The notes under the pieces: model-generated
Databases searched by the model: none
The model's input: the letters and a program-made list of their open reading frames with translations, nothing else
Told to the model about the DNA's origin: nothing
Assembly: GCA_965216795.1 (NCBI GenBank)
Contig: OZ244196.1
Span: 2,650,368-2,714,367, forward strand
Source of the DNA: Pseudomonadales bacterium
Lineage (GTDB): Bacteria > Pseudomonadota > Gammaproteobacteria > Pseudomonadales > UBA7434
Reading direction: 5' to 3'
Length of the DNA: 64,000 bases
In this document: one piece after another, positions 38,384-62,565 of the stretch
How positions within the stretch are numbered: the first letter of the stretch is position 1
Layout: each line of letters starts with the position of its first letter
Translations under genes and position numbers: made by a program

Positions 38384-40336
38384 TCAGTTTGGATCAAACC
38401 AGATAGGCGAGGTATAGGCACGTTCCTGGCCAAACTTGGGTGACTGTTCTGGCGCGGCTTCACCGAAGTGTTTCTCGTCAATGGTAGTCCATCGCGGTGT
38501 AGGAATCTCGAGTACCCTTGCGTAGTAAAACGCGCGAAGGTTTGGGTCAAAATCAGGGTCACGCCACACCACGCTCAGTGACGTGTCACCAATGGTGTTG
38601 GTATAACTGGCCGATGCGACATCGACGGTATTGCCCACCGGCTTGACCTTGTTCCGTTTGATTTTGCGACCGTCAGAAGCTGCGACGTTGTATACCTGCT
38701 CCTGGGTGTTGCCTTCGGCATCGACCCAGCCCTTGATGATCTGGATGCGATCGAGATTGGCGCCGATCGGGTCTTTCAGTGCTGAGACTATAAACGTGGG
38801 TGCCTTGTCGCCGCCCGGTGACTGGAGGGTTCCCCCCATGGGCACGCCATTGCGATAGGCATGGGTAACATAATCGTGGCGATCGACCGTGCTGTGGTCA
38901 TAGTCCCAGCCACCAAAAAAGCGCACCGTCATGCGTGGCCCGGTAGTCGCGTAGACTTCTTTGCGCTGCATCGCATCAAACAGCGCCTTGCGGGTGTTCT
39001 CGCGAGCCCAGACCGCTGCGTAGCCCGAAGATGCAGTCTCCCAGTGATGAACACTGATGCCAGAACCCGCATCGTCTTCAAAAAAGCTCTTATGCGCTCG
39101 CCCGGGCATGGGCTCGACCGACGTCATTTTGCCGAAGAAGTTATCTTCATCGCTGGTGGCAAGGCCGGTGTGCGAGTCGGTGCTGCCGATCATGCCGAAC
39201 TTGTAGGGGTTAACCCCGATTTGTTCTTCGAGCGCCAATCCATTTTTGAGCGCAGATCGCGCGTACTCAAACTCGAGCATGTTGTCTTCTTTTGCGGCCA
39301 GGAAAGACAGGTTGCTCATATCCCAGGTTTCATAATCGGCAAACTCGTCGCTGGGCGATAAAACCGGGTGTGCCTCGCCATCGCCCTTGATCTGGGTCAC
39401 CTCAATAATGGGCTCGTATTTCACGCGCAATGCGGCTTGCTCGGCGGTCAGGGGCTCGCCGGAAAAGGTGGTTTCGGCAAACATCAGGCCGTTGCTGACG
39501 TTGCCGTTGTGCGGAATCGACAGAACCCTGCCGCCGGTTGTGGATTCATAATTGGCCAGATATGCCCAGAGATCCTCCGGGTTGCCGCTATCCATTGATG
39601 AAAAGGGTACAACCTGTCCGGTTGTTTGCGCATCGTCGGCAAACAGCACATTGCGGTGCAGGTTGTTACCGCCCGGCATCGATGTGTATTCATAGCCAAT
39701 AAACGCCGTAAATGTGCCTGGCCGGTTATAGGCATCGGCCGTAGCGCCGACTTGCTTCCAGACAGACTCGACCACCGGGGCCGGTACCTCAAGGCCCTGC
39801 AGGGAGCGGATATGCTCAACGGTGATCCAGGAGCTCCCCTGGGTATAAATCTCGGGGTTTTCAGCGGTTGTTGCGCCCATGGACATGAGGCCGAACTCCA
39901 TCACAACGAGTTGGTGCTTTCCCTCGGCTACGTATTTGGCCCAGCGTTTGCCCAGGTTGGTCTCCGCGATATCGGGTGAGCCGGCAAATACCTTGGGGAA
40001 AATGCCCATAAACTCGGCGTGGTCCGACACCATCAAAAAGTCCAGTGGCCTTGCGAGTTTGGCCTTGACGCCCGTCTGGGAGGTGACCGTTTCGCCCATC
40101 GCAAAGCGATACGCATCTGCTGGCGTAATCGTGCGGTTGCCGAAGGTAAAAGCATCCGGAGACTGGTTGGTATGCAGGTGGGTATCGCCCCAAAAAACCT
40201 GGGCCGGAAAATCGTTGGCAACCGGCGGTGAGTATTCATGTTCTTTGGCCTGTGAGCCAGCCGTGGCAAGCACCAGGGCTGTAGAACACAGGAAGCTGCA
40301 AATTACTTTGATCGAACGCGCGCGCATATTAGACAT
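38384..40336 (-). CDS. Exported DUF3604 family protein (paralogue 1)
   Basis: 650 aa. Signal peptide; FWGDTHLHT metal-type motif; conserved C-terminus WRDPDFDP...YYARVLEIPTPRW...SPIW. Confidence 0.8.
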   Translation of the reverse strand: MSNMRARSIKVICSFLCSTALVLATAGSQAKEHEYSPPVANDFPAQVFWGDTHLHTNQSPDAFTFGNRTITPADAYRFAMGETVTSQTGVKAKLARPLDFLMVSDHAEFMGIFPKVFAGSPDIAETNLGKRWAKYVAEGKHQLVVMEFGLMSMGATTAENPEIYTQGSSWITVEHIRSLQGLEVPAPVVESVWKQVGATADAYNRPGTFTAFIGYEYTSMPGGNNLHRNVLFADDAQTTGQVVPFSSMDSGNPEDLWAYLANYESTTGGRVLSIPHNGNVSNGLMFAETTFSGEPLTAEQAALRVKYEPIIEVTQIKGDGEAHPVLSPSDEFADYETWDMSNLSFLAAKEDNMLEFEYARSALKNGLALEEQIGVNPYKFGMIGSTDSHTGLATSDEDNFFGKMTSVEPMPGRAHKSFFEDDAGSGISVHHWETASSGYAAVWARENTRKALFDAMQRKEVYATTGPRMTVRFFGGWDYDHSTVDRHDYVTHAYRNGVPMGGTLQSPGGDKAPTFIVSALKDPIGANLDRIQIIKGWVDAEGNTQEQVYNVAASDGRKIKRNKVKPVGNTVDVASASYTNTIGDTSLSVVWRDPDFDPNLRAFYYARVLEIPTPRWTTIDEKHFGEAAPEQSPKFGQERAYTSPIWFDPN

Positions 40337-54570: not shown

Positions 54571-56382
<1,812 letters not shown>

Positions 56383-56624
56383 GAAGCGAGTTCCTGGTAG
56401 TCGTCGATACTGCGGGTTGGTGGCTTGCCGCCACGCGCGACTTGCTGCCAGCCTGTCCGGTAGCGGGCCGGGCGGCTTGTGACAAAAGCGCAAATTAGCC
56501 AGCCATTATAACTCAACATGGCAATTTATGGCCGATTTGCAAGGGCTGCCGCTATAAAAAAGTTAGTGCAAATATTGACCAAATTCGAGCCGGCAGTGCC
56601 GCGATGTGCGCTAGCCCCGGCCCG

Positions 56625-58502
56625 CTAGGGTTTATTGCGCGCTGTTCGACGTTCTTTGACCGCAGTCATGGCCTTGAGTTGCTCGCGTTCGGCCGGGTCG
56701 AGCTCGCTGAGCGGGCGGCCCTGCAGGCGTTCGAGCAGTGAGTCGAGCTGCTGCTGCTCGAGGTTGTGTTCAATATGGTGCAGGGTTTCCTGGAGTTCCT
56801 GGCGGGCCAGCGCCAGGTCATCGGGCGGGCTGTGCCGGCTGGCACAGTGATTGAGGATGCGGCCCTGCTCGGTACCGTACCAGTGGCCGAGCAGCGCCGG
56901 GGTCAGCACCTGGTGGGGCTGGGCGTCGATGAAGGCGACCAGTTCGCGCAGCAGGCTGGCCTCGGGGTCGTCTTCGCCGGCCAGGGCCTCGGGTAGCACC
57001 AGTGACTGGGCAAGCTCCGGGTAGTGCAGCACGATGGCGATCGCCCAGACGATCGGGGTTTTCTCGATACCGGCGCTCGCAGGCTCCAGCGCCGGGTTAG
57101 CGGCTGCCGCCGGCGCAGGGCTGTCGCGCTCCGGGGCGGCGTGCTCGCGCGATTCGGGGCGGGGCTCGGGCGCTGAAGCCTTGAGTGTGCCAACATCGAC
57201 CCCGGTCAGCTCTCCCAGGCGCTGCAGCTGCAGCTGTTTGAACACCCCGTCGGGCAGGCGTTGCAGCTGGGGTAGCAGGCGCTGGCTGAAGCTGGCCTTG
57301 CCCGCGTCCGAATCCATCGCCAGGCCTTCGGTCGCCGATTCAAACAGCAGCTGCTCGAGCGGCATCGCGGCATCGACCGCGGCGGCAAAGCGATCCTTGC
57401 CGTGGTTGCGCACAAAGGTATCCGGGTCATCACCAGGGGGCAAAAATAGAAAACGCACTTCGCGCCCATCGCTGAGCACCGGCAGCGCTGTCTCGAGCAG
57501 GCGCAGTGCCGCCTTGTTGCCCGCATCGTCGCCGTCAAAACAGACCACCAGGCGGTTGCAGTGCCGAAAAATCTTTTCCAGGTGAAAGCGGCTGCTGGCC
57601 GTGCCCAGCGTGGCGACCGCGTTGGTCACGCCATGCTGTACCAGCGAGACGACATCCATATAACCCTCGACCAGCAGCAGGTGGTCGAGCTGGCGATTGC
57701 TGCGTCGGGCCTCGTAAAGGCCGTAGAGCTCGCGCTGTTTGTGGAACACCGGCGACTCGGGCGAGTTCAGGTACTTGGGCTTTTCATCGCCCAGCACGCG
57801 ACCGCCAAAGGCCACCACCCGACCGCGATTGTCGCGAATCGGGAACATGATGCGCTCGCGAAAGCGATCGTAGTGGCGGCGCTTGCTGTTGCCTCCATCA
57901 CCGCCTTCCTTCTCGATAATCATGCCGCTGGTTTCAAGCAGCGCCAGTAACTCATCGCGCGAGCAGTTCAGTGGCGGCTCTTCAAGCGCGGCGTTCAACA
58001 GGTTGTCCCAGCCAGGTGGTGCGTAACCCAGGCCAAAGTCGCGGGCGATCTCACCGCTGAGGCCGCGGCCCTTGAGGTAACTCACCGCGGTATCGCGCTG
58101 TGCGTGGCGGCGCAACTGGCCCTGGAAGAAGCGATTGGCCCACTCGAGCAGCGTAAACAGCTGCTGGCTTTTGGCCTGTTGCTGGCGGGGTTTTTCGCCG
58201 CTTTCGCGCGGCACTTCAAGCCCCAGCGAATTGGCCAGCGTCTCTACCGCCTGCGGAAAGTCGACATTGTCATAGTCCATGACAAAGCCGATGCTGTTGC
58301 CGCCGGCACCGCAGCCAAAGCAGTAAAAAAACTGTTTGTCGGGGTTAACGCTGAAAGAGGGCGTTTTTTCCTGATGAAAAGGGCAGCAGGCGGTGTAGTT
58401 GCGGCCGCTTTTCTTGAGCGTGACGCGGCGATCGATCACCTCGACGATATCGGTGCGCTCGAGCAGCTCGTCGATAAAGTCCTGGGGGATCAGCCCGGCC
58501 AT
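56625..58502 (-). CDS. dnaG: DNA primase
   Basis: 625 aa. Zinc-ribbon CPFHQEKTPSF...CFGCGAGG, Toprim domain (LVEGYMDV...DGDDAG). Confidence 0.95.
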   Translation of the reverse strand: MAGLIPQDFIDELLERTDIVEVIDRRVTLKKSGRNYTACCPFHQEKTPSFSVNPDKQFFYCFGCGAGGNSIGFVMDYDNVDFPQAVETLANSLGLEVPRESGEKPRQQQAKSQQLFTLLEWANRFFQGQLRRHAQRDTAVSYLKGRGLSGEIARDFGLGYAPPGWDNLLNAALEEPPLNCSRDELLALLETSGMIIEKEGGDGGNSKRRHYDRFRERIMFPIRDNRGRVVAFGGRVLGDEKPKYLNSPESPVFHKQRELYGLYEARRSNRQLDHLLLVEGYMDVVSLVQHGVTNAVATLGTASSRFHLEKIFRHCNRLVVCFDGDDAGNKAALRLLETALPVLSDGREVRFLFLPPGDDPDTFVRNHGKDRFAAAVDAAMPLEQLLFESATEGLAMDSDAGKASFSQRLLPQLQRLPDGVFKQLQLQRLGELTGVDVGTLKASAPEPRPESREHAAPERDSPAPAAAANPALEPASAGIEKTPIVWAIAIVLHYPELAQSLVLPEALAGEDDPEASLLRELVAFIDAQPHQVLTPALLGHWYGTEQGRILNHCASRHSPPDDLALARQELQETLHHIEHNLEQQQLDSLLERLQGRPLSELDPAEREQLKAMTAVKERRTARNKP

Positions 58503-58524
58503 GCCTGTGCCTGCGTTGCCGGGC

Positions 58525-58977
58525 CTAGCCCAGCTTGGCCTTGATGGCAGCGCTCACCGCACCCATGTCAGCACGGCCCTGCAGCTGTGGTTTGAGCACA
58601 GCCATCACCTTGCCCATGTCGCGCATGCTCTCGGCGCCTGTGCTGGTAATTGCCTCTGCGATTAACTGCTCAATCTCGGCAGCGTCGAGCTGGGCGGGCA
58701 TGAAGCCCTGGATGACCTCCATCTCACTGCGTTCCTGGGCGGCCAGTTCATCGCGGCCGGCCTTTTCAAACTGTTCGATGGAGTCGCGACGCTGCTTGAG
58801 CATTTTATCGAGCACCGCAAGGATGCGAGCGTCGTCCAGCTCGATGCGCTCATCGACCTCGATGCGCTTGATCTCGGCGAGCATCAGCCGAATCGTTGCC
58901 AGCCGCTCTTTTTCTTTTGCGCGCATGGCCGCTTTCATGGCGGTATCGATTTCAATCCGTTTTTCAGCTTTGCTCAC
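58525..58977 (-). CDS. yqeY: GatB/YqeY domain protein
   Basis: Start placed at the in-frame GTG 58977 (VSKAEKRIEIDTAMKAAMRAKEKERLATIRL...), giving 150 aa, typical of YqeY. The longer ORF would run into the hairpin element. Confidence 0.75.
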   Translation of the reverse strand: MSKAEKRIEIDTAMKAAMRAKEKERLATIRLMLAEIKRIEVDERIELDDARILAVLDKMLKQRRDSIEQFEKAGRDELAAQERSEMEVIQGFMPAQLDAAEIEQLIAEAITSTGAESMRDMGKVMAVLKPQLQGRADMGAVSAAIKAKLG

Positions 58978-59046
58978 AATAACGATCTCGATGCAGTTCG
59001 GCGGTATTTCCGCATTATATATGCCCCAAAAGCATTGCGGGGGCGA

Positions 59047-59155
59047 GTTCTGTGCTTGAGCTATCAGGTCGGGAACGTCGCCCGCACGGATGCGGGCGCC
59101 GAGCGTGCAGGACGCATTCAAAGCGATTCCCGACCTGATAGCTCAAGCACAGAAC
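59047..59155. repeat. Long-hairpin element 1 (29-bp perfect arms, 51-nt core)
   Basis: gttctgtgcttgagctatcaggtcgggaa ... ttcccgacctgatagctcaagcacagaac. The core contains the sub-hairpin cgcccgca-cgga-tgcgggcg. Confidence 0.85.
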
Positions 59156-59210
59156 GGCGGCTCACTATGTAAAGGCCTGTTGATCAGGCTGGGGGCGGAA
59201 TCCCGGCCGC

Positions 59211-59302
59211 GCAAAGCCCTTTGACGAGAACCGCTGTGAATGCATCCATGCACGCTCAACGCCCGCATCCCTGCGGTCGATGTTCTCGTCAAAGGGCTTT
59301 GC
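59211..59302. repeat. Long-hairpin element 2 (21-bp perfect arms, 50-nt core homologous to the reverse complement of core 1)
   Basis: gcaaagccctttgacgagaac ... gttctcgtcaaagggctttgc. Core cgctgtgaatgcatccatgcacgctcaacgcccgcatccctgcggtcgat aligns to the reverse complement of core 1. Confidence 0.85.
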
Positions 59303-59445
59303 ACAGCCGGAACTCCTTTGCTCTGCAAATTCGGGACGTAGCTATGTCTGGCGCCAAAACGCCGTAGGGAAATATCAGTGTTGGAAAGCGCTCGAACCAG
59401 GCCGGCTCGAGCGCTAAAAGTCGCTGGGGAGGGGAGAGCGTCGGC

Positions 59446-59661
59446 CTAGTAGAGGCGAACGCGTGAACGCATCTCGCGGCTGACTTTCTTCTGGTGACGC
59501 TTCACCGCAGCAGCGGCTTTGCGCTTGCGCACCGACGTGGGCTTCTCGTAGAACTCGCGGCGGCGGGCTTCGGCGATGACGCCGGCTTTTTCACAGGAGC
59601 GTTTGAAGCGACGCAGCGCGATATCAAACGGCTCGTTATCTTTGACTTTGACTTGCGGCAT
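59446..59661 (-). CDS. rpsU: 30S ribosomal protein S21
   Basis: 71 aa: [27 protein letters not shown]... Confidence 0.95.
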
Positions 59662-59795
59662 TCAATAGACCTTCGCAACAGGTTGATTTTTCTGGCGCTG
59701 GCGCCCAGCGCGATATACAGCCTAGCGCAACCGGGGCGGTGCTGCCCGGGGCGCAAGGCGCGGCATTCTATACAGGCTGGCGGAAAATTGCAAAA

Positions 59796-61694
59796 TCAGC
59801 GTGGGGCGGCCTGCTGGCTGGCCTGGTACCAGATCGGCGAACTCCAGGCCCGCTCCTGGATCGTCCGCTGGAGCTGGCTGGATTGGCACCAGTTGGGCAG
59901 TTTTGCCCGCTCTTCGGCCGATTTGCCGGCGCTGGTGCAGGCCCAGTCGGTGCTGCGACAGCTGGGGTTCTCCACCACCCGGGCGTAGTAGACCGCGTCC
60001 TGGGCGGGGTCGAAATCGGGGTCGCGCCACAGCGTGCACAGGCGGGCGTGGCCGGGGCCGCGGGGCTTGCAGCTGTCCAGGTCGACACTGGCCTTATTGG
60101 GCCCGCCGGCGATATCGATCACCTGCTGGTGCAGCTGGCCATCGCTGTCGGTCCAGCCCTTGATGATCTGGGCCCGCTGCAGCGCCGTGCCCGGATGTCG
60201 GGGCGTGCCTGGGTCCTGGCTGGCGACCAGCAGGAACTGCGGCGCCTGGTCTGCGAGCGTTCCGGCATCGAGCTTGCCGCCCATCGGCACGCCATCGCGG
60301 TAGGCCCCGGCCAGCCAGTCACTGCGGGCGCAGCTGTCGCTCTCGAACGAGGGGCCGGCGAACAGGCGCAGGGCAATGCGCGGCCCGCTGGTGCCATAGG
60401 CCTCGCGACGGCGCATTGCATCAAACAGTGAGGCGCGCGAATTCTCCTCGGCCCAGACCGCCACCAGGCCGCCGTTGTTGCGACCCTGGCGCGGGTTAGG
60501 TTGGTTGCCCGGCAGGTCGCGGCGCCACTCCTCGACGCTGCCCGGCGTCGCATCGTGGGTATCGGTCGAGGCGATAAAGCCCAGCTGGAAGGGGTTGATG
60601 CCCAGTCGCTGCTGTTCTTTGAGGCCCTCAAGCAGGGCATAGCGCGCAAAGTCCTGGGTCGCCACGCAGCCTTCATCCAGCAGCGAACCCACGCCCGTAT
60701 TGCGTTGGCACTGCTCGGTATCCGGCAGGCGCAGCTTTTCAAAGTTGCACAACTCGTCGTTGCCGCCGAGCACATTCCACATGCCGTTGCGACACTCAGA
60801 GTCGCCTTTCATCTGCATCATTTCAACCAGGGGCTCGATACGGGCACGCAGCGCCGCCAGTTCGCGCTGGGCGTCGATATCCAGTGCCGGGTCAGGCACA
60901 GTCGTAAACAGGTTGCCGTTCGACAGGTTGGGGTTGTGGGGAATCGCCAGCACGTCGCAGCCGTTGTCGGCATCCATGCATTCATCGCGCAATCGCTGCC
61001 AAAGCACGGTCTCATCCGGTTCGTCGTTATAGCTGATCGGCCGCTCGATCACGGTCTCGTTCTTGAAAATGACGTTGCGGTGGATCTTGGTCAGCTCGGG
61101 GTTGGCGGTGTACTCGTAGGCGACAAAGGTTGAAAACGCACAGCTGTCGGTCTCGTCCTGGTGGCGGGCCGCCGCAGCCTGGATCTGCTGCCAAATCTGC
61201 AGCTCGACATCGCGGCACAGCGCGCCGTCTTTGCCGCATACCTCGGCGTTCGACAGTCGGCCGCCGGTCTGCTCCACCATCCGCCGGACGATTTCCTTGA
61301 CGTTCTTGGCACCGCGCAGATCGACCGGGCTGCGAAAGCGCTCGCAGGTTTCGCTGCTGTAGGCGGGGCTGTCCGGGTCGGCGCACAGCCGGGTGGCGCC
61401 CGCATCCGAGGCGTGGTCGGTGGTGGCGGCAAAGTCCAGCGCGCGTTCCAGCTGCACGCTGTGCGCGCCGGGCTTCAGTGCAATGGCTTCGCCTTTGGCG
61501 AAGCGATAGGCATCGTCCGGGGTATTGCGGGTGCCAAAGGTCCAGGCGTCCATCGACAGCGCGGTATGGACATGCAGGTCGCCCCAGAACAGCTGGCGCA
61601 GCGGCTCATGATCGGCGCAGCGCGGGTCTGCTGCAAAGGCTTTGACTTGGCATACAATGGCCAGCAGGATGGGCAGGCTATGGCGCGGCAGCAT
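59796..61694 (-). CDS. Exported DUF3604 family protein (paralogue 3)
   Basis: 632 aa. Signal peptide; LFWGDLHVHT motif; C-terminus WRDPDFDP..DAVYYARVVENP...SSPIWY. Confidence 0.8.
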   Translation of the reverse strand: MLPRHSLPILLAIVCQVKAFAADPRCADHEPLRQLFWGDLHVHTALSMDAWTFGTRNTPDDAYRFAKGEAIALKPGAHSVQLERALDFAATTDHASDAGATRLCADPDSPAYSSETCERFRSPVDLRGAKNVKEIVRRMVEQTGGRLSNAEVCGKDGALCRDVELQIWQQIQAAAARHQDETDSCAFSTFVAYEYTANPELTKIHRNVIFKNETVIERPISYNDEPDETVLWQRLRDECMDADNGCDVLAIPHNPNLSNGNLFTTVPDPALDIDAQRELAALRARIEPLVEMMQMKGDSECRNGMWNVLGGNDELCNFEKLRLPDTEQCQRNTGVGSLLDEGCVATQDFARYALLEGLKEQQRLGINPFQLGFIASTDTHDATPGSVEEWRRDLPGNQPNPRQGRNNGGLVAVWAEENSRASLFDAMRRREAYGTSGPRIALRLFAGPSFESDSCARSDWLAGAYRDGVPMGGKLDAGTLADQAPQFLLVASQDPGTPRHPGTALQRAQIIKGWTDSDGQLHQQVIDIAGGPNKASVDLDSCKPRGPGHARLCTLWRDPDFDPAQDAVYYARVVENPSCRSTDWACTSAGKSAEERAKLPNWCQSSQLQRTIQERAWSSPIWYQASQQAAPR

Positions 61695-61734
61695 ATCGGC
61701 TCTCCAGCGGGTGAGCTAAAGCCAGGAGATAACC

Positions 61735-62565
61735 ATGATACTCGATAAATTCAGGCTCGATGGCAAGACGGCCATTGTCACCGGTGCGGGCAAGGGCTGT
61801 GGTTACAGCATCGCGCATGCGCTGGCGCAAGTCGGTGCCAGGGTGCTGTGCGTGGCGCGCACCGGTGCTGATGTCGAGGTCACGGCCGATGAGATCCGCG
61901 CGCAGGGCGGAGAGGCGGCGGCGCTTGCGGCGGATGTCACCAACGAAGCGGACCGCGAGCGCATTATTGCTGCGGCGCTCGATCATTTTGGCCGGCTCGA
62001 TGTGCTGGTCAACAATGCCGGCGGCACCGGCCACGGGCCAACTGCGCAGATCGACGACGCCCAGGTCTACCAGACCATGCAGGTAAATTTTATGGCGCCG
62101 GTTTACCTGATACGCTCGGCAGTGCCCGCGATGCGCAACGTGGGCGGTGGATCGATCGTCAATATATCTTCGGGTATGTCGCGCATCGCCAATATTGGTT
62201 CGGTACCCTATGGCGGGGCCAAGGCAGCGCAGGAACAGGCCACGCGCATGCTCGCGCTGGAGTACAGCCCCGAGGTGCGCATCAATGCCCTGCGGCTGGG
62301 TGCGATCCGCACCCAAAACATGGAGGACAACCTGCTCAAGGCCATGCCGGGTATCGGTGAAAAGCTCAGTGACTGGACGCCAGTGGGGCGGTTGGGTGAG
62401 CCCGATGATATCGCCGCCGCAGTCGTGTATTTGGCGACGCCGGCCTCGGGCTATGTTACCGGCAAGATACTCGACGTCGACGGCGGTATGATTATCGAGC
62501 GCTCGCTGATGGAAGTCATCGCCACGGCCGAGCGCCTGCACGGTGGTGGCACGTCCGGGGCATGA
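61735..62565 (+). CDS. SDR family oxidoreductase (FabG-like)
   Basis: 276 aa. TGAGKGCG cofactor motif, NNAG, catalytic YGGAKAA (YxxxK). Confidence 0.8.
   Translation: MILDKFRLDGKTAIVTGAGKGCGYSIAHALAQVGARVLCVARTGADVEVTADEIRAQGGEAAALAADVTNEADRERIIAAALDHFGRLDVLVNNAGGTGHGPTAQIDDAQVYQTMQVNFMAPVYLIRSAVPAMRNVGGGSIVNISSGMSRIANIGSVPYGGAKAAQEQATRMLALEYSPEVRINALRLGAIRTQNMEDNLLKAMPGIGEKLSDWTPVGRLGEPDDIAAAVVYLATPASGYVTGKILDVDGGMIIERSLMEVIATAERLHGGGTSGA

Follow-up and report, generated by a model that had tools for sequence, protein, structure and literature searches.

The stretch of DNA considered here, 64,000 nt of contig OZ244196.1 (positions 2,650,368 to 2,714,367) from a bacterium of the order Pseudomonadales and called the window below, carries an rpsU-yqeY-dnaG operon in which the spacer between rpsU and yqeY is occupied by two related palindromic elements. 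The spacer measures 468 bp, in agreement with the figure of about 470 bp given in an earlier reading of the window that used no database searches (the sequence-only reading). Each element is a long hairpin in which a stem, P1, closes a conserved core, and the core itself folds into two smaller hairpins, B and A, both of which bear GGA in the loop; the strand on which these triplets appear is referred to as the GGA strand. Both elements belong to a repeat family that is found across many Gammaproteobacteria and includes the YPAL/RU-2 repeat of Yersinia. The features of the locus are as follows.

59047-59155, GGA strand plus (antisense to the rpsU-yqeY-dnaG operon): element 1, a complete copy of 109 nt
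59047-59075, plus strand: 5' arm of stem P1 of element 1, in perfect 29-bp pairing with 59127-59155
59127-59155, plus strand: 3' arm of stem P1 of element 1, pairing with 59047-59075 over 29 nt at 100% complementarity
59076-59101, plus strand: hairpin B (P2) of element 1, with stem CGUCGCCCGCA / UGCGGGCGCCG, loop A-C-GGA-U and GGA at 59088-59090
59106-59116, plus strand: hairpin A of element 1, UGC-AGGAC-GCA, with GGA at 59110-59112
59197-59316, GGA strand minus (the operon sense strand): element 2 with its full stem, 120 nt
59211-59231, minus strand: arm one of the inner stem of element 2, perfect over 21 bp with 59282-59302
59282-59302, minus strand: arm two of the inner stem of element 2, perfect over 21 bp with 59211-59231
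59260-59279, minus strand: hairpin B of element 2, CGACCGC-AGGGAU-GCGGGCG, its GGA being the complement of 59268-59270
59241-59252, minus strand: hairpin A of element 2, UGC-AUGGAU-GCA, its GGA being the complement of 59245-59247
59446-59661, minus strand: rpsU
59387-59415, minus strand: small hairpin directly past the rpsU stop codon, seen in a repeat scan and in the alignment of relatives
59010-59024, minus strand: conserved GCATATATAATGCGG containing TATAAT, kept in all relatives aligned
58525-58977, minus strand: yqeY, with a GTG start
56625-58502, minus strand: dnaG

The arms of element 1 enclose a core of 51 nt (59076-59126) and the inner arms of element 2 a core of 50 nt (59232-59281), and 41 nt separate element 1 from element 2. 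A repeat scan bore out the sequence-only reading in that the 29-bp and 21-bp arms are perfect and have no relation to each other, and alignment of core 1 with core 2 in reverse complement (blocks of 40 nt at 85% and of 23 nt at 83%; core identity ~80%) upheld its view that the two cores lie in opposite orientations. Two of its details need amending, as each core holds two small hairpins rather than one, and the extent that it gave to element 2, 59211-59302, is that of the perfect 21-bp stem, the full stem running from 59197 to 59316 with 35-nt arms (59197-59231 / 59282-59316) that are 89% complementary. The outer 14 bp of this full stem (59197-59210 / 59303-59316) pair on the minus strand only, by way of four G·U pairs. 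As RNA, element 1 folds at -79.2 kcal/mol (z -13.2 in the shuffle comparison), and element 2 folds at -86.3 kcal/mol on the minus strand versus -65.6 kcal/mol on the plus strand (z -11.7 against shuffles). A 28-nt degenerate pattern of the core matches the window at these two places only, with a chance expectation of 0.00. The sole other inverted repeat of such size in the window is a 30-nt near-palindrome, GAACTTGTAGGGGTTAACCCCGATTTGTTC, at 39197-39226.

When the degenerate core pattern was run against one genome per species, it returned 95 loci holding ~60 true copies, the remaining matches being chance occurrences inside coding sequence of Actinobacteria and Alphaproteobacteria. The hosts of the true copies include Cellvibrionaceae, Pseudohongiella, Marinimicrobium, Alteromonas oceanisediminis, and metagenome-assembled genomes (MAGs) of Chromatiales, Rariloculaceae and Moraxellaceae. 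A covariance model, R1, built from 49 non-Yersinia copies with both window elements included, located, within these loci, 14 additional copies overlooked by the strict pattern, and it also found copies in three IMG/VR contigs, in metagenome contigs and in Enterobacterales plasmids. Against R1, element 1 scores 95.1 bits (E 3e-20) and element 2 scores 94.4 bits. With pattern scan and covariance model combined, the family comes to ~80 copies across many Gammaproteobacteria; the core, whose copy number the sequence-only reading had proposed to check, is dispersed in many genomes and not unique to this locus. None of the copies falls inside called coding sequence: all are intergenic, often 6-50 nt from the end of a gene, and of the 43 sites that could be classified, 27 are flanked by co-directional genes, 11 by convergent and five by divergent ones. 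The plan common to these copies is a conserved core of 50-52 nt within arms of 24-35 bp that are copy-specific in sequence and complementary to each other.

The copies also occur in several unusual arrangements. On a Pseudohongiella chromosome, four tandem copies (L022:5403-6340) follow one another with start-to-start spacings of 293, 293 and 252 nt, and lie within a longer repeated unit that holds GTGGAAC motifs. In Alteromonas oceanisediminis (L076:974-2987), copies are spaced by 263 nt, and the array is bordered on either side by weaker copies in inverted orientation. Low-GC variants on two of the IMG/VR contigs (L100:6732-9584 and L102:10628-13122) form inverted pairs ~2.3-2.7 kb apart; the pair on L100 brackets a 443-aa open reading frame (ORF) with KAP-type P-loop NTPase motifs, and an adjoining ORF resembles an S24/LexA-type repressor, both resemblances having been judged by eye. 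Such inverted pairs could be due to chance or could represent a composite mobile unit.

On the GGA strand, all copies fold into a three-way junction in which P1 closes hairpins B and A. In the 49-copy alignment, 24 of 24 tested P1 pairs vary on both sides, and 94.4% of P1 cells are paired, compared with 67% in shuffled controls and 32-44% for slid partners. The stem of hairpin B, 8-10 bp long, is constrained by the search pattern itself, and independent stems come from the copies found by R1; its variants covary (CGCCCGC, CGGCCGC, CGCGCGC, CACCGAC, CACCAAC, CGGUCGC and CGAAAAC), with G-C, C-G, A-U and U-A all occurring at the paired alignment columns 26 and 49. Covariation likewise extends to the stems of hairpin A, which read UAC/GUA, CCC/GGG, UCC/GGA or UGC/GCA. 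Within these changing stems the GGA triplet is present in hairpin B of 49/49 and in hairpin A of 48/49 aligned copies, in loops that include AGGGAU, AUGGAU, AAGGAU, ACGGAU and AGGAC, so that the N of the A(N)GGA motif may be any base or absent, as it is in hairpin A of element 1. The majority of copies have UACAGGGAUGU as hairpin A and GCAGGGAUGC as hairpin B. Besides both loops, a small number of junction positions stay constant, the same loops are retained in the Enterobacterales and A+T-rich variants, and the flanks outside the stem show no conservation among copies. The moving unit is the whole hairpin, i.e. a stem of arbitrary sequence that closes a conserved junction with two A(N)GGA(Y) hairpins.

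Among copies from one genome or clade (L005, L013, L029 and L071; L016, L023, L033, L060 and L089; L007, L040, L059 and L073), cores are identical or nearly so, the stem varies little over its first ~10 bp from the junction, and compensated changes cluster ~11-24 bp from the junction, a segment that, by eye, looks hypervariable. One degenerate copy (L037:5322-5433) has gained a third hairpin, with the loop CACAGGGAUGUG, through an insertion in hairpin A. A purine-rich motif of the GCGAGG, GCAAGG or GAGAGG type often stands at or just 5' of the foot of the stem, on the GGA strand and in clades that are not related; possible explanations are a weak third site resembling GGA, a part of the element's end and a target preference. 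Several other identities for the conserved structure were tried and rejected. At permissive thresholds, Rfam returned generic long-hairpin matches (miRNA precursors) as well as CRISPR-DR29 on hairpin B at 26 bits. A small protein encoded by an open frame across the core is at odds with the stem covariation and a 1-nt loop indel, which break any conserved peptide; an attC site fails on anatomy, the conserved part being the tip of the hairpin and not its base; and a hammerhead or other ribozyme was dismissed on the grounds that the junction strands are only 0, 1 and 2 nt long and not conserved, with no Rfam match.

Close relatives show the same spacer in filled and empty states. Four metagenome contigs, L001-L004, encode an identical RpsU (exact protein look-up) and were aligned across the spacer, thereby providing the comparison of relatives that the sequence-only reading had called for; their spacers differ by the presence or absence of the elements, of which they carry 0, 1 or 2.

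L002: neither element, in a spacer of 192 nt
L001: element 1 only, with arms that are different yet still palindromic
L004: without element 2
L003: both elements

Because these contigs differ in content while the flanking blocks persist, the elements are insertions or deletions in an otherwise conserved spacer. Both window cores, as well as those of L001 and L003, share a hairpin A stem of UGC/GCA and a junction GAA (not GAC), and these lineage-specific traits indicate that both elements arose within this lineage. At the site of element 2, L004 has only the outer hairpin, 12 bp on the operon-sense strand, and, by comparison with L004, element 2 sits in the loop of such a hairpin with TGC on both sides; the outer 14 bp of element 2 may therefore be the hairpin that received the insertion. 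Association with dyad symmetry is evident in this hairpin, in the neighbour 41 nt away and in the clustering of copies with unrelated arms within one spacer, examples being a group of four within 2.4 kb of L109 and two copies each in L108, L106 and L076. Insertion beside existing dyad symmetry would yield clusters of this kind. Copies at different loci of the same genome have related arms, and since the long arms are also missing from the empty site, they belong to the element. The suggestion in the sequence-only reading of a miniature element linked to palindromes is, accordingly, sustained by the dispersed core, the empty sites and the L004 hairpin, but not in its assumption that the arms are palindromes which the element targets or creates.

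The closest described relative of the family was found in Yersinia, where a blastn search of plasmids and phages with the consensus core gave a match; the Y. pseudotuberculosis copy lies in the poxB-ltaE spacer and has on either side a 15-nt direct repeat that consists of the poxB terminator hairpin. The repeat named RU-2 is reportedly the same as the YPAL element described by De Gregorio et al. (2006, J Bacteriol 188:7876). The Y. pseudotuberculosis copy is identical to the printed 168-nt RU-2 of Y. pestis CO92 (Delihas 2007, PMC2759123). Although R1 contains no Yersinia sequence, it scores this copy at 63.4 bits (E 1e-14), and plasmid variants from Enterobacter, Pantoea and E. coli at 40-81 bits; the Yersinia unit folds into a longer hairpin with the same tip. 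YPAL has been described as carrying inverted repeats inside the unit and lacking TA ends, as duplicating 3-26 bp of target, as inserting in or beside dyad symmetry, as showing filled and empty sites when Y. pestis is compared with Y. pseudotuberculosis, and as being co-transcribed with upstream genes (Delihas review, PMC2229807). The likeness between the window family and the YPAL/RU-2 of Yersinia and Pectobacterium lies in a homologous central ~100 nt, with the same three-way junction, A(N)GGA loops and junction nucleotides, as well as in intergenic location, occurrence in either orientation, filled and empty sites, and the association with dyad symmetry. The two differ in that the window elements measure 109-120 nt as opposed to 167-168 nt, in that the arms have no common sequence, and in their host, here an uncultured gammaproteobacterium whose nearest named relatives are Cellvibrionales and not Enterobacterales. 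Other miniature elements are less alike: Correia/NEMIS and ERIC resemble MITEs (transposable elements of the miniature inverted-repeat type), are co-transcribed and form long RNA hairpins, the Correia stems being RNase III substrates (PMC2229807), but they have conserved terminal inverted repeats and TA target duplications, whereas the arm sequences of the window family show no conservation. Conjugative plasmids of E. coli, Klebsiella and Citrobacter from wastewater isolates (e.g. NZ_CP067312.1, 71600-71763) carry a full-length YPAL variant with 75% identity to the Yersinia unit, and such plasmids are a possible route for intergeneric spread.

Part of the same repeat is also on record as a small RNA. 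The Rfam model RF02770, Ysr224, matches the Yersinia copy (L103:1488-1594) at 133.9 bits, covering one arm plus the core, or half of YPAL; a typical family member, L054, reaches 24 bits against a gathering threshold of 70. The strand that Ysr224 models is opposite to the G·U-tolerant strand with the GGA loops, and so the model was probably placed on the less constrained strand. Ysr224 has been listed as a temperature-responsive small RNA that is prevalent in genome annotations (PMC9029176). The entry looks like a repeat-element fragment filed as a small RNA.

That one particular strand of the element is constrained emerges from the mismatches in its stems. Read on the GGA strand, the non-Watson-Crick cells of P1 comprise 61 G·U vs 12 A·C, and mismatches over the full arms comprise 62 G·U, 33 G·A, 12 G·G, 5 A·A, 7 A·C and 6 pyrimidine·pyrimidine, so that two purines face each other often and two pyrimidines seldom. 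The tolerance of mismatches in a folded single strand follows the same thermodynamic order, for RNA and DNA alike; on the opposite strand, the same positions become C-containing mismatches, the worst class. Where a mismatch is confined to a single copy of a genome or tandem array, it is nearly always G·U. The bias of G·U over A·C does not depend on how a copy is oriented to co-directional flanking genes, being 16:0 in sense copies and 22:2 in antisense copies, and Pfam confirmed the gene orientation for ten flanking ORFs at five antisense loci, including the prfA-prmC spacer. Given this independence from flanking-gene direction, one specific single strand must fold. The copies themselves show no preference in orientation to flanking genes, with 11 sense and 16 antisense, nor is there an orientation bias with respect to the local GC skew of the loci. 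As the mismatch bias is equal in antisense copies and there is no orientation preference, folding of host mRNA is not the selected property, and we infer that the constraint reflects the element's own biology.

Taken together, these data make it likely that both elements of the rpsU-yqeY spacer are copies of a non-autonomous miniature insertion sequence, distant and shorter relatives of YPAL/RU-2 that inserted independently, in opposite orientations and at or beside dyad symmetry. The window pair is a case of old, diverged YPAL-type copies. The strand-specific fold would be the form that is recognized during propagation, whether as single-stranded DNA or as RNA, and the two identical loops may serve as contacts for a dimeric protein. 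At this locus the pair is most likely selfish cargo, with conceivable side effects on the operon transcript from the strong stems, from possible RNase III cutting and from possible capture of CsrA, the last of which might apply to the RNA of element 2.

Several observations weigh against this interpretation. The 64-kb window holds only two copies by pattern and R1, and these lack the flanking extensions of the 168-bp YPAL. Ysr224 gives no match at E<=1 in window positions 56000-62000, and as the sole recorded transcript it is modelled on the opposite strand. The one candidate for a target duplication is the 3-bp TGC at element 2 only, and a deletion between TGC triplets could explain L004 equally well; flanking direct repeats are not enriched across the family. 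No transposase or other gene family recurs within 2.5 kb of copies (~50 loci), no promoter or terminator is shared among the flanks of copies, and there is the lack of an orientation preference noted above.

The strongest competing explanation, possible though on balance doubtful, is that the family is mainly a host RNA device, namely a mobile two-site module for CsrA/RsmA that acts as a sponge or places the transcripts carrying it under Csr control. The long stem would then insulate the module and might let RNase III release it. A CsrA dimer can reportedly bridge sites 10-63 nt apart (Mercante et al. 2009), and the two GGA triplets of the family, which start 23 nt apart, fit within that range. 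A(N)GGA is the accepted CsrA/RsmA motif (PMC4066749), and the consensus from in vitro selection (SELEX) for CsrA is RUACARGGAUGU, in which ACA and GGA are invariant and GGA lies in a hairpin loop (PMC4347634). The family presents two hairpins with A(N)GGA loops; both loops conform to A(N)GGA(Y) closed by C-G over a wide phylogenetic range while the stems covary, and the variable or absent N mirrors the known tolerance of CsrA (PMC4066749, PMC4347634). The same layout, two hairpins within an outer stem, characterizes the TwoAYGGAY RNA (RF01731), for which CsrA binding was proposed by the same reasoning, from sequence alone (PMC4333381). Within one genome, moreover, cores are identical and arms ~20% diverged, which implies constraint on the core. 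Since the loops match the CsrA/RsmA site exactly, sense-transcribed copies become candidate CsrA binders; judged from the motif and its layout, transcripts of the GGA strand could plausibly bind CsrA, if with less than even probability, and in the window this would concern element 2, for which that strand is the operon sense strand.

As a general account of the family, the host-device explanation is countered by the even use of both orientations, by antisense copies in tight operon spacers such as prfA-prmC that leave no space for a promoter, by the lack of a conserved promoter or terminator, and by a structural bias that is as strong in antisense copies. With antisense copies as frequent as sense ones and no promoter or terminator travelling along, a CsrA role would apply to at most some copies. 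The likeness to TwoAYGGAY and to the CsrB, RsmY and RsmZ sponges resides in the paired A(N)GGA(Y) hairpin loops and, for TwoAYGGAY, also in the outer closing stem; those RNAs are encoded by single-copy genes that possess a promoter and a terminator of their own, unlike the dispersed repeat described here, which has neither. No Rfam model of the CsrA-binding RNA class gave a covariance-model match to the window elements or to the typical member L054. There is no csrA gene in the window or in the loci of the family, and a literature search returned no paper that links YPAL with CsrA.

An improbable alternative is a repeat of the repetitive extragenic palindromic (REP) or REPIN type that moves as single-stranded DNA by means of a REP-associated tyrosine transposase (RAYT) or an IS200/IS605-type Y1 transposase recognizing hairpin B and a 5' tag. 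The strand-specific single-strand fold, which tolerates G·T, would suit such a process, as would the intergenic location with depletion in divergent promoter regions (5/43 classified sites); in most copies, CGTC also precedes hairpin B and the opposite strand has GTAG, a pattern reminiscent of tagged REPs (PMC3733652). The family does resemble REP and REPIN sequences in that both are short intergenic palindromic repeats for which single-strand folding matters. These tags are not conserved, however: alignment columns 26 and 49 covary, and in place of GTAG there are also GTAC, GGGG and GGAG, each matched by a change in the pairing partner. The core is a branched, asymmetric three-way junction and not two inverted REPs, and the sequence of the stem is free. 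In published REPs with CGTC, the stem is 8-9 bp long and begins with A·T, and a CCA tail is present (PMC3733652); the copies lack these features. No Y1 transposase gene recurs within 2.5 kb of copies at the ~50 loci surveyed, no RAYT is associated with the family at these loci, and orientation is unbiased relative to GC skew. For want of a conserved GTAG/CGTC tag and of a recurring Y1 transposase beside the copies, the REP/PATE-like label proposed in the sequence-only reading was dropped.

It is very unlikely that the pair constitutes a regulator specific to the rpsU-dnaG operon, i.e. an attenuator, a terminator or an RNase processing site. The rpsU-dnaG spacer of E. coli contains a terminator and processing sites, and the position of the elements corresponds to that spacer; their stems are, furthermore, highly stable. 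Nevertheless, dozens of unrelated spacers carry the elements, the two copies here are opposite in orientation, no U-run follows either stem and no terminator-like site was found at either element. Because the elements are missing from relatives with an identical RpsU, which possess the same spacer without them, a conserved attenuator or operon leader, the alternative that the sequence-only reading had raised, is rejected. Equally remote is the idea, implied by the Ysr224 entry with its half-YPAL match and listed temperature response (PMC9029176), that the copies are independent small-RNA genes, for that entry is one arm plus the core on the worse-folding strand, no promoter or terminator is common to the copies, neighbouring genes lie 6-50 nt away and the high prevalence of Ysr224 (PMC9029176) is as expected of a repeat element.

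YPAL/RU-2 has so far been treated as a MITE of Yersinia and Pectobacterium and, in Rfam, as a Yersinia small RNA. The same core is now seen in numerous lineages of Gammaproteobacteria, for the most part uncultured MAGs, as well as on conjugative Enterobacterales plasmids; its conserved part is the branched tip only, the stem being free to change. Three aspects are possibly new: how widely the family is spread, its three-way junction bearing two loops of the CsrA type, and the structural constraint on one specific strand. The mismatch bias would be explained by a strand-specific single-stranded intermediate, which is relevant to how the elements move, and for genome annotation, matches to Ysr224 are to be read as repeat elements. 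A broader and rather speculative proposal is that the YPAL superfamily is a mobile RNA module with a ready docking site for a CsrA dimer, in which the GGA strand is the functional and perhaps also the propagating one. If that were true, a sense insertion would put a transcript under Csr control or enlarge a dispersed CsrA sponge, and mobilization via an RNA intermediate would fit both the variable target duplications and the strand-specific, RNA-type fold. Were the A(N)GGA hairpins to bind CsrA, the element would be a mobile carrier of post-transcriptional control.

The remaining observations concern the operon and its relatives. The hairpin at 59387-59415 lies outside both elements, is kept in relatives with and without them, and is probably the rpsU terminator. 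The GCATATATAATGCGG block at 59010-59024, which lies downstream of element 1 as the operon is read, is, to judge by its TATAAT and its conservation, a probable -10 region for yqeY-dnaG; a simple promoter scan put no flag on it. A scan of metagenomes for this rpsU-yqeY locus found nothing. The L003 copy of element 1 (L003:705-803) has arms that are complementary at ~17/29 positions, versus the window copy with its perfect 29 bp, a difference that suggests recent homogenization of the element 1 arms, e.g. by template switching in a quasi-palindrome, the alternative being a chimeric metagenome assembly. The window's DnaG has a 100% identical counterpart on a 3.4-Mb contig; among its other relatives, the closest, on contig L001, has 86% identity and the next 63%, and the named ones, at ~50% identity, are Cellvibrionales (Halieaceae, Spongiibacteraceae and Oceanicoccus).

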